DNA of 64,000 nucleotides. Source: Bacteroidales bacterium UBA1392. GTDB lineage: Bacteria; Bacteroidota; Bacteroidia; Bacteroidales; UBA932. A model generated the notes under the pieces. It ran no database searches. It was not told where the DNA came from and saw only the letters and a program-made list of their open reading frames with translations. Shown piece by piece: positions 8,417 through 62,788 of this stretch (positions within the stretch are counted from its first letter, which is position 1; every line of letters begins with the position of its first letter). The position numbers were made by a program, and so were the translations under genes. The stretch covers positions 2,963 through 66,962 of the forward strand of contig DBQO01000020.1 in the NCBI GenBank assembly GCA_002305275.1, read 5' to 3'.

Positions 8417-8451
8417 ATAGTATGTAGTGTGTAGTATGTAGTATGTAGTAA
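8417..8451 (+). repeat. heptanucleotide tandem repeat, 5 units (ATAGTAT GTAGTGT GTAGTAT GTAGTAT GTAGTAA)
   Basis: Read directly. Starts 2 nt after the TGA stop and contains no C. The first 26 nt are identical to 31347-31372. Confidence 0.9.
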
Positions 8452-8635
8452 AAGGGATTTAGGAGTTGGGATTTATGGAAAAGGAAGAAAGTTTTGTGAT
8501 TTTGAAATTTTATAACAATCCCACAGGATTTGGAGTCTCACAGAACTCTCTACATAAACCAAAAAATAGTTCCGAACTCATACCTAACTACTAAAAAACT
8601 TACTCATAACTACCGACTATTTACTTGAAACTATA

Positions 8636-8673
8636 AAAATGGGGATCAGTTTGTGATGTGACCCCCATTTTTT
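8636..8673. terminator. bidirectional intrinsic terminator between DUF3467 (+) and the oxidoreductase operon (-)
   Basis: AAAATGGGG...CCCCATTTT stem with an A-tract on the left and a T-tract on the right. Confidence 0.6.
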
Positions 8674-8694
8674 GTACTATTCGTATCTATTCCT

Positions 8695-9237
8695 TTACAA
8701 AATCTCAACTGCCTTCATTCCGATGCTGATTGCCTGCTCATTCATCGGTATCAGACCGTGATGGCGTTCCGGAAGGGACTTCCTGAGCCCTTCGAGGACA
8801 TTAGCCATAGTCACGATTGGCTTGACTTTGAGGTAGGCACCAAGAACAATCATATTGTAAGCTTTGGCATTGCCAAGTTTTGCAGCCTCATCTGCCGCAG
8901 CTATGCGACAAACTTTTATATCTTTCCTTTCGGGATGGCGCGTAATGCCATTAGGATCGTAAATGAGGACTCCTCCCGGCTTTACCCTACTCTCAAACTT
9001 GTCGAGCGACTGCTGATTGAGTATGATTGCAGTGTCAAATCTGCTGAGTATGGGCGAGCTGATCTTATTGTCGCTAAGAATAACGCTCACATTACAGGTG
9101 CCACCACGCATCTCAGGGCCGTATGACGGCATCCAAGTGACTTCCTGATCCTGCATTATGCCTCCATAAGCCAAAATTTTGCCCATAGAGAGGACTCCCT
9201 GTCCTCCGAAACCTGCTATAATAATCTCTTCTTTCAT
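8695..9237 (-). CDS. 2-oxoacid:ferredoxin oxidoreductase, gamma subunit
   Basis: MKEEIIIAGFGGQGV start, typical of gamma subunits. I chose ATG 9237 over the track's TTG 9258. Confidence 0.85.
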   Translation of the reverse strand: MKEEIIIAGFGGQGVLSMGKILAYGGIMQDQEVTWMPSYGPEMRGGTCNVSVILSDNKISSPILSRFDTAIILNQQSLDKFESRVKPGGVLIYDPNGITRHPERKDIKVCRIAAADEAAKLGNAKAYNMIVLGAYLKVKPIVTMANVLEGLRKSLPERHHGLIPMNEQAISIGMKAVEIL

Positions 9238-9274
9238 ATCATCTATTTTATTAATCAAAATAATACGGAGGTTC

Positions 9275-59943: not shown

Positions 59944-59997
59944 ATCCTGCAATTCGCTAATAACTTACAAAATTAGTACAATTTTATCAAAAAGTAG

Positions 59998-60005
59998 TAC
60001 ATTTG
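59998..60005 (+). promoter_or_regulatory. candidate -7 promoter box for the phosphofructokinase gene
   Basis: TACATTTG, 28 nt upstream of ATG 60034. Confidence 0.4.
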
Positions 60006-60033
60006 CAACCGGAAATTCAAATACGAACATTTT

Positions 60034-61266
60034 ATGAAAGAATCTATCATTATTTTAACAGGAGGAGGGCCCGCTCCCGGCATAAACACGGTTATAGGTA
60101 GCATAGCGAAAGCTTTTTTAGCGAGGGGATATAGGGTACTCGGCCTCCATGGTGGATATAAAGGACTTTTCACTCCCGACCCTTCATATACTGAAATAGA
60201 TTTTGTGATGGCCGACTCCATCTTCAACAGAGGCGGTTCACACCTTATGATGAGTCGATACAAGCCCACCGAAAAGGACTATGAAGGAAATTTTAACCAT
60301 AAACTTTTTCAGGACAACAATATCAAGCTGCTTGTGACAATAGGCGGTGACGATACGGCTTCTACTGCCAACAGGATCACCAAATTCCTCCAGGCAAGGA
60401 ATTACAAAATCTCCAATATCCACGTTCCCAAGACTATCGACAACGACCTTCCGCTTCCACTCAATACTCCAACATTCGGTTATCACTCAGCAAAAGCTGA
60501 GGGTACCCGTATCGCCACCACGGTATACGAGGATGCGAGGACCTCGGGCAACTGGTTTATCGTGGCCGCGATGGGGCGCTCCGCAGGCCATCTGGCCATA
60601 GGTATCGGCTCTTCCTGCCACTACCCGATGATAATCATCCCTGAGATGTTCAACAAATCCAAAATTACCGTAGACAAGATCATAAAACTCTCCATCTCCT
60701 CCATCATCAAGAGAAAATTGATGGGTATTCCCTATGGAGGAATAATGCTCTCCGAAGGAGTCTTCCATCTTCTGGATGAGGATGAGCTGAAGGCCACAGG
60801 CGTGAGATTTACTTACGATGAGCATGGACATCCCGAACTTGGCAAGATATCAAAGGCACAGCTCTTTAACGACATTCTGGAGATTGAGCTCAAAAAGCTC
60901 GGAATGAATATAAAGATGCGTCCCATTGAGATCGGTTATGACATCAGATGCCAGGCTCCCATCTCTTACGACCTGCTCTATTGTACCCAGCTCGGTTGCG
61001 GAGTGTATGAACTCTACACGCGCGGAGAGTCGGGATGTATGGTCTACGTGGATACTATCGGTCGTATCAAGCCCCTTTACCTCAAAGACTTTCAGGATCC
61101 CAAGACAGGTAAGATCCCCCCGCGTCTGGTGGACATCGAAGGTGATCAGGCACAGGGCATCTACAAACACATAGTACACTACATTACCCCTAACGACTAC
61201 GAGGCAGCCAAAGAGTACGTCAGCAACCCTGAAGAGTACGATTTCCACAAGATACTAAACTGGTAG
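60034..61266 (+). CDS. pfp: 6-phosphofructokinase family enzyme with PPi-dependent signature residues
   Basis: 410 aa. GGGPAPGIN, IGGDDTAS (Asp where ATP-PFKs have Gly) and PKTIDNDL (Lys where ATP-PFKs have Gly). Confidence 0.8.
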   Translation: MKESIIILTGGGPAPGINTVIGSIAKAFLARGYRVLGLHGGYKGLFTPDPSYTEIDFVMADSIFNRGGSHLMMSRYKPTEKDYEGNFNHKLFQDNNIKLLVTIGGDDTASTANRITKFLQARNYKISNIHVPKTIDNDLPLPLNTPTFGYHSAKAEGTRIATTVYEDARTSGNWFIVAAMGRSAGHLAIGIGSSCHYPMIIIPEMFNKSKITVDKIIKLSISSIIKRKLMGIPYGGIMLSEGVFHLLDEDELKATGVRFTYDEHGHPELGKISKAQLFNDILEIELKKLGMNIKMRPIEIGYDIRCQAPISYDLLYCTQLGCGVYELYTRGESGCMVYVDTIGRIKPLYLKDFQDPKTGKIPPRLVDIEGDQAQGIYKHIVHYITPNDYEAAKEYVSNPEEYDFHKILNW

Positions 61267-62753
61267 TGCAAGGGAAGGTGATCATATATCAGCTGTTATT
61301 AAGAGCTTTCGGCAAACGCAAGAGCGTCCCCGGAGGCTCTTACAGTATCAATGGCAGCGGTAAGTTTGACGACGTCACCGATGAAGTACTTAAAAAAATC
61401 AAAAAGCTCTCGGTCAGCGCCATCTGGTATACCGGAGTAATATCTCATGCAACCAAGACGCACTTCAATGGTATAAAGGATTGCAACGGCTCTATCGTGA
61501 AGGGAGAGGCAGGTTCCCCTTATGCCATTCGCAATTATTTCGACGTGAGTCCGGCTCTGGCCAATAATCACGACAACCGTATGGCGGAGTTTGAAGCACT
61601 AATCCATCGCACTCACAAGGCGGGGATGAAGGTTATCATAGATTTTGTGCCAAATCATGTGTTTCGGCAGTATGATACCTATTTTACGAAGGACAATTTC
61701 TACCTGCTGAACGGAGCGTTGGTGCTGCCGGAGTCTCTCAACTCCGATTATGTAGAAAATCCCGCCAAGGCCACGGGTAACGATGTGTTCCACACCTCTC
61801 CCTCCCTCCATGACTGGTATGATACTGTCAAACTCAACTACGACAACCATGGCACCTGGGTTAAAATGCTAGAAATCCTCAAATTTTGGGTGTCGAAAGG
61901 GGTGGATGGTTTCCGCTGCGACATGGTGGAATTGGTGCCTGCGGAGTTTTTCGGCTGGGCTTTCAGTGAGATAAAGTATCTCTACCCAAATACTTTTTTC
62001 ATTGCAGAGGTCTATGGCAAGGAGAATTACAGGAAATATCATGGGGTGGGCGGATTTGACCTTTTGTATGATAAATCGGGCTTCTATGATACTCTGAGGA
62101 GTATTATCTGCGATGGAGCAAGTACGAGATTGCTCACGGGAGAATGGCAATACCTCGGCGATCTGCAACCTCGTATGCTCAATTTTCTGGAAAATCACGA
62201 TGAGCAGCGCATTGCCTCGGATTTTTTTGCAGGTTCGGGCAGGGCGGCATTTCCGGCCCTTGCAGTCTCTCTGCTTTTCAATAAGGCACCATTCATGCTC
62301 TATTTCGGCCAGGAGTTCGGTGAGAGGGGGATGGAGAGTGAGGGCTTTAGCGGAGTGGACGGACGCACCTCGATTTTCGATTACTACAATGTGCCTTCGA
62401 TAAGACGCTGGTTGCTCGACCGGCTGACGGTGGATGAATTGGTGGTATACAAGGAGTATGTACGCCTGTTGAAGATAGCTACCTCAGATGCCATTTTTGC
62501 ATGCGGAGAGACCTACGATCTGATGTATGCCAATCCCGATTCCGAGCGATTTAACGGCAATCGCAAATTCGCCTTCATGCGGGGCTATGAAGGCTCATGT
62601 ATGCTTGTAGTGGCCAATTTTGGGGATCGCCATGCTGAGGTGGAAGTCAATATACCTAAGGAAGCCTATTCGTTTTTCGGTATAGAGAAAGAGGGGGAGA
62701 GGGTGAGGCTGAAAGTTGGAGCGCGAGATTATATGAGGGTGAATTTGGTTTAG
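61266..62753 (+). CDS. GH13 alpha-amylase-family glycoside hydrolase
   Basis: GH13 conserved regions DFVPNH, GFRCDMV, FIAEVY and FLENHD. The GTG start overlaps the previous stop by 1 nt, so the exact start is uncertain. Confidence 0.8.
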   Translation: MQGKVIIYQLLLRAFGKRKSVPGGSYSINGSGKFDDVTDEVLKKIKKLSVSAIWYTGVISHATKTHFNGIKDCNGSIVKGEAGSPYAIRNYFDVSPALANNHDNRMAEFEALIHRTHKAGMKVIIDFVPNHVFRQYDTYFTKDNFYLLNGALVLPESLNSDYVENPAKATGNDVFHTSPSLHDWYDTVKLNYDNHGTWVKMLEILKFWVSKGVDGFRCDMVELVPAEFFGWAFSEIKYLYPNTFFIAEVYGKENYRKYHGVGGFDLLYDKSGFYDTLRSIICDGASTRLLTGEWQYLGDLQPRMLNFLENHDEQRIASDFFAGSGRAAFPALAVSLLFNKAPFMLYFGQEFGERGMESEGFSGVDGRTSIFDYYNVPSIRRWLLDRLTVDELVVYKEYVRLLKIATSDAIFACGETYDLMYANPDSERFNGNRKFAFMRGYEGSCMLVVANFGDRHAEVEVNIPKEAYSFFGIEKEGERVRLKVGARDYMRVNLV

Positions 62754-62788
62754 TTATACGGGTTACGAGGTGCGGGTTGCGGGTTCAG
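62747..62788 (+). repeat. heptamer-periodic tract, 6 units, consensus GGTTNCG
   Basis: GGTTTAG TTATACG GGTTACG AGGTGCG GGTTGCG GGTTCAG. The first unit contains the GH13 TAG stop. Confidence 0.7.

Follow-up and report, generated by a model that had tools for sequence, protein, structure and literature searches.

Heptanucleotide arrays at gene ends in the window

The stretch analysed here (64,000 nucleotides (nt) of contig DBQO01000020.1 from Bacteroidales bacterium UBA1392, 46% G+C, hereafter the window) carries Bacteroidales-type housekeeping genes, several of which are directly followed by tandem arrays of 7-nt units with the consensus R-A-G-T-N-N-N and GTAGTGT as the archetype. Period-7 arrays were called with Tandem Repeats Finder (TRF), which returned four clean ones (8418-8450, 18252-18286, 31348-31484 and 48555-48602). 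Exact runs of at least three copies occur four times at period 7, three times at period 9 (all in 31553-31667) and once at period 4 (a CTCC run), and are absent at periods 5, 6, 8 and 10-12; no such run of period 7 appeared in 100 shuffles of the window. A second scan, requiring AGT at a 7-nt phase in at least four of five consecutive units, identified seven tracts compared with none in 20 shuffles, namely the four clean arrays and three degenerate ones. The seven tracts are as follows.

8418..8450, + strand: (GTAGTRT) array of 4.7 copies (TRF), beginning 2 nt past the TGA stop of the DUF3467 gene
8591..8632, - strand: degenerate heptads AGTTTCA AGTAAAT AGTCGGT AGTTATG AGTAAGT (AGT-phase scan)
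18252..18286, + strand: perfect (GTAGTGT)5 (TRF, 5.0 copies, 100% matches), 1 nt past the TAG stop of a 132-amino-acid open reading frame (ORF)
31348..31484, + strand: (GTAGTGT/GTAGTAT/GTAGTTT) array of 19.6 copies, TRF score 211
32845..32879, + strand: degenerate (GAGTTNN) heptads with AGT in phase in 5/5 units, 1 nt past the stop of the M19 dipeptidase gene
37430..37464, - strand: degenerate GGAGTAT-type heptads (AGT-phase scan) overlapping the TAG stop of a gene for a 611-amino-acid CCG/Fer4 protein
48555..48612, + strand: (GGAGTAT/GTAGTGT) array of about 7 copies (TRF 48555-48602, 6.6 copies), holding the stop of the C69 dipeptidase gene

All seven tracts lie between genes, with their G/T-rich strand always on the coding strand of the gene that directly precedes them. 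Six of them start between -10 and +3 nt relative to the stop codon of that gene; the exception, 8591-8632, begins 2-6 nt past the T-run of a bidirectional terminator 3' of the POR-family oxidoreductase gene. Repeat units provide the stop codon in folC, where the stop (31362-31364) and the last four to five codons lie within the array, in the C69 dipeptidase gene and in the gene for the 611-amino-acid protein. The arrays at 18252-18286 and 32845-32879 occupy short convergent intergenic regions of 47 nt (18251-18297, with no hairpin) and 52 nt (32844-32895), respectively. The spacer with the tract 37430-37464 separates two genes on the minus strand and is C-free on the sense strand, and behind the C69 dipeptidase gene C-free degenerate units run on from 48612 to the next start codon at 48647. 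The density amounts to approximately one array per 9 kb. Pfam agrees with the gene names assigned previously, namely DUF3467, the POR-family oxidoreductase, the folC-like Mur ligase, the M19 and C69 dipeptidases, the CCG/Fer4 protein, purL, carB and GH13.

The repeat units also encode protein ends, at 31350-31364 (folC, …EIVCSV*) and 48557-48565 (C69 dipeptidase, …IRSM*); the folC product of the relative L100 ends in …EIVC*, unlike that of the window.

A preliminary description of this DNA had reported heptamer tracts at ten places. The observation is real but was overstated: four of the places hold clean arrays and three hold degenerate ones, while one is weak (62759-62785), one belongs to a different unit family (26241-26261), and the last, 42465-42485 after carB, consists of just two imperfect units that no test picked up. 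The tract given as 37375-37462 is periodic in its first 35 nt, and the rest is not.

Position and orientation of arrays in related genomes

A genome-collection scan with (GTAGTGT)3 as query matched at least 110 stretches, about 38 of them from eight Bacteroidales metagenome-assembled genomes (MAGs), mostly of anaerobic digesters and animal guts. The L-numbered loci mentioned here are, for the relatives, 8-kb fragments from the matches listed. All clade figures rest on 341 kb from nine genomes, window included, among these matches, and the query means that one array per fetched locus is present by ascertainment. The 341 kb contain 63 exact runs of three or more copies at period 7 and four at period 9, with none at periods 5, 6, 8, 10 and 11. 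Collapsing by orthology reduced 66 AGT-phase tracts to 45 independent groups, and the pattern of the window was found again in all eight MAGs.

The strand consistency with the upstream gene that had been claimed for the window is real in this lineage. Within 40 nt of a stop codon (stop-adjacent), sense groups outnumber antisense ones by 24 to 4 (p=1.8e-4), and the tracts that had not been used to fetch their loci comprise 14 in the sense of the upstream gene and 2 that are not (p=0.004). As an absolute rule, the claim fails: 7 of 24 co-directional groups are antisense and adjoin start codons, and overall about 15-30% of arrays have the opposite orientation. In the antisense minority, both neighbouring genes are on the opposite strand and a gap of 2-11 nt separates the array from the start codon, where the mRNA reads (ACACUAC)n-AUG. 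Both flanking genes could be called for 36 groups, and not one of these is situated between divergent genes (p ~0.002-0.01 when set against the background of intergenic-region types). In about 12 loci, including the window with its tracts at 8419 and 8591, oppositely oriented tracts lie 0.1-3 kb apart, each sense to its own gene. The orientation thus flips with that of the genes over such distances, which indicates that the rule follows genes and not replication, and an explanation by replication strand was rejected on this ground.

Furthermore, in five genomes an array begins 5 nt past tRNA-Arg(CCT) in the sense of the tRNA and consists of (GTAGTGT)3-7 followed by an intrinsic hairpin terminator (L096 5136-5300; orthologues L018, L052, L063 and L024). 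Placement is therefore not tied to translation, and the 3' trailer of this tRNA contains the array. The relation to terminators was scored with a purpose-written scan for a hairpin plus T-run. Of the 66 tracts, 43 share their intergenic region with no hairpin terminator, 16 have the gene on one side and the terminator on the other, and 7 begin 4-8 nt past the T-run; where terminators are present, tracts do not overlap them. Generic terminator and promoter scans were set aside as of little use for placing real terminators, with counts close to those of shuffles (about the shuffle expectation in two of three segments, and modestly higher in the third, 29 vs 17.9, standard deviation 4.8). The genes flanking the arrays are unrelated housekeeping genes without a common theme. 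Arrays are thus shown to persist only where the last functional element of a transcription unit has just ended, or immediately in front of a start codon.

The confinement of arrays to regions that are likely transcribed, and never to divergent intergenic regions among the matches listed, would also be expected if the mutation itself depended on transcription and orientation were unselected, with R-loops or a slipping, exposed non-template strand expanding those arrays whose sense strand is G-rich. The partial nature of the orientation bias, the hypervariability of the arrays and the arrangement of the purest units next to the gene, with degenerate remnants farther off, fit such a process. However, there is no clear difference in length between arrays of the two orientations (medians of about 56 nt in sense and 50 nt in antisense, judged by eye), arrays directly past terminators should be poorly transcribed, the bias is missing in other taxa, and the conservation of AGT and the avoidance of C described below are left unexplained. 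We consider a purely mutational origin of the orientation very unlikely.

Outside the clade, most genomes give just one to three loci each. With crude ORF-based gene calls, the same unit is found in 13 antisense, 7 sense and 4 divergent positions in other Bacteroidota, and in 10 antisense, 5 sense and 9 divergent positions in other phyla, among the matches listed. In viral contigs, the permuted control (GATGTGT)3 occurs at 13 loci vs 4 for (GTAGTGT)3, and we rejected the notion of GTAGTGT as a universally special unit because the control is at least equally frequent there. The distinctive features of this lineage are the amplification and the orientation of the repeat; the heptamer itself is not special.

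Long (GTAGTGT) arrays of at least 84-112 nt were also noted in Planctomycetota MAGs (L002, L009, L058 and L072) and in an unclassified MAG (L036 and L081), where they run to the ends of contigs or of stored stretches. Where both neighbours of a Planctomycetota array could be called, a divergent pair of genes was frequent, which distinguishes these loci from those of the Bacteroidales clade. Ends of short-read contigs fall inside arrays in L128 (1-30; a public contig with the left end of the window, at the 8418 array) and likewise in L002, L009, L036, L039, L058, L072 and L081. The repeats evidently fragment assemblies and will be under-counted in MAGs.

Exclusion of C and RNA structure of the arrays

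The sense strands of the arrays contain no C, and their complements consist of 35-43% C with no G. C-free runs in the window cover 8412-8515 (104 nt, with the 8418-8450 array inside), 31334-31495 (162 nt) and 31517-31673 (157 nt), compared with a maximum of 67 nt in shuffles, and the 119 nt at 37364-37482 have a single G on the + strand, so that the sense (minus) strand is C-free bar one position. A C depletion of 3' flanks in general was not found, as array-less intergenic regions have ordinary C content. Among the variants within GTAGTGT-type arrays, 4 T-to-C events stand against 17 T-to-G and 13 T-to-A events. This T-to-C deficit reverses the normal mutation spectrum, so that C is actively excluded from the arrays. 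As RNA, both array strands are essentially unstructured, with open chains as centroid structures and z-scores near 0, and the arrays have no internal inverted repeats. The G-rich strand of GTAGTGT and GTAGTAT has a stop in all three frames, and GTAGTGT gives TAG in each. The GGGTTRC sub-family fits the G3N4 quadruplex pattern in relatives (L100 and L083), while GTAGTGT has no G-run. A role as a contingency-locus (phase-variation) repeat, whose copy number in a coding frame or promoter spacer would switch the expression typically of surface or restriction genes, was rejected, given that the arrays follow the stops of housekeeping genes (folC, the dipeptidases, DUF3467) and tRNA-Arg and that GTAGTGT and GTAGTAT close all frames.

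The preliminary description had suggested, as one of three possible functions, that the arrays act through Rho, with C-free 3' untranslated regions that evade the factor and a C-rich, G-poor complement that forms an ideal Rho-utilisation (rut) site against antisense or convergent read-through. The first half of the proposal agrees with the C-free sense RNA, which would evade Rho inside operons too, and the composition of the complement, the lack of structure on both strands and the under-representation of T-to-C changes suit an insulator or terminator of this kind, as do the 43 of 66 tracts with no hairpin terminator in the region (among the matches listed), including those in the short convergent regions 18251-18297 and 32844-32895. 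The second half is not supported. YC is the ligand of the primary binding site of Rho, and rut sites span 60-90 nt (PMC5314796); the idea of an ideal rut site is weakened because ACACUAC has no YC dinucleotide. The antisense strands of all GTAGTGT and GTAGTAT arrays contain zero YC vs 12.7 per 100 nt window-wide. Most arrays are 30-60 nt long, and 60-90 nt are reached just by 31348-31484 and a 9-mer array in the same spacer, the others being 33-56 nt. Moreover, C-rich antisense arrays do occur in co-directional spacers directly upstream of start codons, the same repeat has no sense bias in other Bacteroidota (crude gene calls), and the conservation of AGT is not explained. A Rho-directed function has, in our estimate, a slim chance of being correct.

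Turnover of arrays at shared junctions

Five of the loci from the relatives align to the window with 80-84% identity, among the matches listed, and enable a comparison of individual junctions. Behind the C69 dipeptidase gene, the window carries about 7 units; L056 has about 13 at this junction, and L053 about 29 together with a new 14-mer array. After folC, 20 GTAGTGT units and a 9-mer array in the window correspond to 4 units and about 15 GGGTTRC units in L100; after DUF3467, 4.7 copies correspond to about 8.6 in L061; and after the M19 dipeptidase gene, L100 has a (GAGTTCT)n array at the site of the degenerate tract 32845-32879. The arrays of L053 (about 190 nt) and L056 separate two genes that overlap in the window, and L057 has an antisense array before a start codon where the window has none. 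About half of the non-ascertained junctions are shared with the window among the matches listed.

Beyond the heptamer array and a GGGTTRC remnant at 31494-31520, the spacer between folC and the M19 dipeptidase gene contains two further arrays that the preliminary description had overlooked.

31485..31751, + strand: remainder of the C-free spacer from folC to the M19 dipeptidase gene (TRF; 2% C over 387 nt)
31526..31667, + strand: 9-mer array (TAGAGTAGG), 15.7 copies (TRF)
31679..31732, + strand: 21-nt repeat (TRF)

The 9-mer array is absent from L100, which has a single-copy seed there (tttagaataattaaagtaag). The 9-mer and the 21-nt repeat look like recent local expansions, and the comparison with relatives shows new 9-mer and 14-mer arrays grown from local seeds.

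GGGTTRC or GGGGTRC arrays often follow GTAGTGT arrays (L100 3823-3927, L083 7023-7174, L046 3836-3891 and L056 7407-7476). A fixed composite architecture was nevertheless rejected, because the reverse order occurs too. With respect to the fixed architecture or terminal motifs of a mobile element, no shared non-repeat flank was found among the loci compared.

Persisting junctions together with turnover of their content are the behaviour of a slippage-driven satellite. Slippage had been among the mechanisms considered in the preliminary description, and the comparison with relatives clearly shows it to be the generator of the arrays. We tentatively interpret the arrays as a lineage-amplified family of hypermutable heptanucleotide microsatellites, driven by slippage and filtered for orientation at the transcript, a reading that may well be right. 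Replication slippage, with the preference for 7-nt units that had been noted before in bacterial repeats, creates, expands, contracts and reshuffles the arrays, and they survive solely in non-coding DNA behind the stop codon of a gene, the 3' end of a tRNA or the T-run of a terminator, with a minority before a start codon. The orientation filter, which we infer to act at the transcript level, would tolerate the C-free G/U/A strand behind a gene, where it offers no stable structure and nothing for Rho to bind, and the TAG of GTAGTGT in three frames would let an array grow harmlessly into a stop codon. Before a start codon, the G-free ACACUAC strand would be tolerated, being without start or stop codons. 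The arrays would then have no dedicated function.

A conserved AGT core within the unit

A census of 396 units from GTAGTGT-type arrays revealed that the seven positions vary to different degrees, with 6 variant events per array at G1, 14 at T2, 5 at A3, 6 at G4, 4 at T5, 31 at G6 and 16 at T7. Even the degenerate tract 8591-8632 and its L061 orthologue differ at none of 15 AGT positions and at 7 of 20 positions elsewhere (Fisher p=0.012).

Several observations weigh against a slippage-driven satellite that is merely filtered at the transcript. The A3-G4-T5 core collects 15 events, and the remaining four positions 67 (p=3e-6). G-to-A events differ about 5-fold between G1 and G6, although the TGT context is common to both. 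AGT is retained in 23 distinct unit types (at least two exact tandem copies), with GGT in eight others. The argument from a stop in every frame does not extend to GGAGTAT arrays, which lack stop codons. One unit family at dozens of unlinked loci is not accounted for by independent slippage, and neither is the fixation of G1, A3, G4 and T5 beside the varying T2, G6 and T7. In co-directional intergenic regions, 17 groups are sense vs 7 antisense (p=0.06). Finally, a general filter by Rho or structure would be expected to produce the same bias in other Bacteroidota, and no sense bias of the same unit was found in other Bacteroidota or other phyla with crude gene calls among the matches listed. 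The pattern itself is real and lineage-wide, with statistical support.

The AGT core bears on a second proposal of the preliminary description, in which the arrays are binding platforms for an RNA-binding protein. HutP offers an exact parallel for it: the protein recognises XAG three times with spacers of 4 nt, reads A and G specifically and has (UUUAGUU)3 as its model ligand; XAG repeats are read by TRAP as well (PMC2425495). The arrays likewise present XAG at period 7 on unstructured RNA, so the spacing agrees. They might then be cis-acting RNA platforms for an oligomeric protein that reads XAG(U) every 7 nt in a ring-shaped or cooperative manner, with HutP/TRAP-like, cold-shock-domain or RRM proteins as candidates, and, placed in a 3' untranslated region, trailer or spacer, they would influence the stability of 3' ends, their processing or read-through. 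In addition to the strict 7-nt phase of AGT over more than 20 unit types, the position-specific conservation within units and the degenerate orthologue pair that keeps every AGT, the C-free unstructured sense strand suits a single-stranded binding site, the orientation follows the gene, and a clade-specific bias is what a clade-specific protein would predict. HutP and TRAP do read such repeats (PMC2425495), and cold-shock proteins bind heptamer units (PMC4679880).

In contrast to the dozens of 3'-flank arrays of 4-35 units found here, which do not overlap terminators, HutP and TRAP sites comprise 3+3 or 11 triplets in a 5' leader, overlap the terminator of one operon and serve a known protein (PMC2425495). 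HutP and TRAP are absent among the 20 window proteins scanned (about 50 ORFs called), and neither a cognate protein nor a candidate was identified among them. Arrays of 20-35 units with about 50% turnover between relatives resemble neutral satellites more than tuned sites, arrays past efficient-looking terminators would seldom be transcribed, about 15-30% of arrays have the opposite orientation, and no theme unites the unrelated housekeeping genes beside them. In data from crosslinking and immunoprecipitation of RbpB in Bacteroides thetaiotaomicron, no heptad motif is reported. We regard a protein platform as possible but rather unlikely. A bolder version, in which XAGU-N3 arrays would be the cis-code of an unrecognised global post-transcriptional system of a Bacteroidales lineage, with an oligomeric protein reading one AG(U) per 7 nt along C-free 3' trailers and spacers within operons and slippage serving as a rheostat for how many binding units there are, appears unlikely.

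The phylum of the Bacteroidales is reported to be without Hfq and CsrA (PMC13370968). If the strand rule and the AGT phase are functional, they may provide a handle on post-transcriptional control in Bacteroidales and could explain what bacterial heptamer repeats, on record since 1990, are for. Even if neutral, the arrays are very dense hypervariable markers (about one per 9 kb) that rewrite the last codons of genes, with the folC and C69 dipeptidase stops inside them, and break short-read assemblies.

Relation to published heptanucleotide repeats

Heptamers are over-represented among bacterial simple repeats (PMC4692102), and the arrays share with the bacterial intergenic heptanucleotide families their tandem 7-nt units, dispersed intergenic loci and varying copy number and unit. 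The statement in the preliminary description that no described element matches them had to be dropped, as intergenic heptanucleotide families, some of them 3'-proximal or orientation-biased, have been published (PMC4692102, PMC4679880). In the literature searches, no account of GTAGTGT arrays from Bacteroidales came up. The arrays are a further example of the known, unexplained bacterial heptamer repeats, to which they add the sense bias past gene ends, the exclusion of C and the AGT phase.

The GGGAATC repeats of Xanthomonas and the GGGGA(C/T)T repeats of Nostoc were described by Rehm et al. 2015 (PMC4692102), extending Mrazek et al. 2007. They occupy more than 100 dispersed loci, of which about 90% are intergenic, with a mean distance of 28 nt from the upstream ORF, and are rare between divergent genes; their junctions are shared by related species while length and sequence change, and polymerase slippage was invoked with the role left unexplained (PMC4692102). 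The present arrays are similar in their tandem intergenic 7-nt units, their position nearer the upstream gene and not between divergent genes, and their shared junctions. Unlike the arrays here, GGGAATC and GGGGAYT are rich in G-runs, form G-quadruplexes and are about equally frequent on either strand relative to genes (PMC4692102). The main unit here has no G-runs, a sense bias, an exclusion of C and an AGT core, and the minor GGGTTRC sub-family alone resembles GGGAATC.

TAACTGA direct repeats are known from Beggiatoaceae, Cyanobacteria and a few Bacteroidetes (MacGregor 2015, PMC4679880). They lie within a few nt upstream of starts, have stops in all frames of the forward strand and were proposed as a site for a post-transcriptional regulator (PMC4679880). 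Like the present arrays, they are intergenic, gene-oriented heptamers that can overlap upstream stops, and long arrays and other heptamers occur in some Bacteroidetes (PMC4679880). TAACTGA is, however, found mostly before start codons, whereas here 24 of 45 groups adjoin stops in sense and only an antisense minority is found at starts, among the matches listed. Unit (by the census of the clade), host clade and copy numbers differ. Its reverse complement, TCAGTTA, contains AGT.

The cyanobacterial STRR units are CCCCAGT, TTGGTCA and CAACAGT. As in Calothrix and Nostoc, the arrays here form lineage-specific tandem heptamer families scattered in intergenic DNA, but unit and phylum are different, and the unit census of the clade contains none of the STRR units. 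To our knowledge, no strand rule relative to upstream genes has been reported for STRR repeats. Several unrelated published heptamer families have AGT once per unit (TCAGTTA, CCCCAGT and CAACAGT), by coincidence or a common cause; if the XAGU code were true, the AGT shared with TAACTGA and the STRR units would hint at a wider and older mechanism. REP/BIME elements of enterobacteria are found after stops, between co-directional or convergent genes, not in promoters, and in many copies; they are imperfect palindromes that fold into hairpins and are mobilised by RAYT transposases. The arrays share this genomic niche but are non-palindromic, unstructured tandem repeats. For Calothrix, three heptanucleotide repeats have been reported (Mazel et al. 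1990, as summarised in PMC4692102).

Other repeats and neighbouring features

Three further features of the window lie beside the repeat family or belong to other unit types.

8635..8672, no strand: bidirectional intrinsic terminator (A-run, hairpin, T-run), identified as an inverted repeat; fold -30 kcal/mol, z=-2.7
26241..26261, - strand (purL sense): (TTGGCCG)3 (TRF), the third unit carrying the TAG stop
62759..62785, + strand: weak (CGGGTTR)/GGGTTRC array of 3.9 copies (TRF score 33), 6 nt past the stop of GH13

The terminator at 8635-8672 lies between convergent genes and is context for the arrays, outside the repeat family. At the window level, Rfam at the gathering threshold gave a tRNA at 26092-26165 as the sole match, and the arrays match no family. 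About 10 kb could be added to the left through public contigs, in which no further tract was found, and nothing could be added to the right. At 6568-8415, a gene for RNase Y with the domains RNase_Y_N, KH and HD directly precedes the DUF3467 gene, whose stop codon adjoins the first array; the pair also occurs in L061 and L128.

In three convergent regions, the sense array of each gene faces that of the other and forms near-perfect inverted repeats of 17-18 bp with arms 140-460 nt apart (L067 5224-5241/5383-5400, L023 6877-6893/7081-7097 and L008 3076-3092/3553-3569). Such face-to-face arrays were rejected as terminator hairpins, since canonical bidirectional terminators stand alongside and the pair in the window shows no such pairing.

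After GH13, the tract first delimited as 62747-62788 is retained in part, as the weak array at 62759-62785; its unit, which includes three GGG runs plus one GG here, forms long arrays in relatives. A G-quadruplex calls for at least four runs of three or more G separated by short loops. The array lies upstream of a hairpin terminator, and the intergenic region is co-directional, with a + gene beginning near 63040, so that it is not convergent.

The TTGGCCG tract at 26241-26261 had been set apart in the preliminary description: it has a different unit of the separate TTRGCYR family, is not C-free and overlaps the purL stop. A period-10 repeat (CAATTCGCGC, 3.7 copies) at 26205-26242 adjoins it, with the tRNA at 26092-26165 nearby. 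Related TTRGCYR heptamers occur in L013 (4502-4545) and L094 (5431-5465), in opposite orientation relative to the flanking genes.

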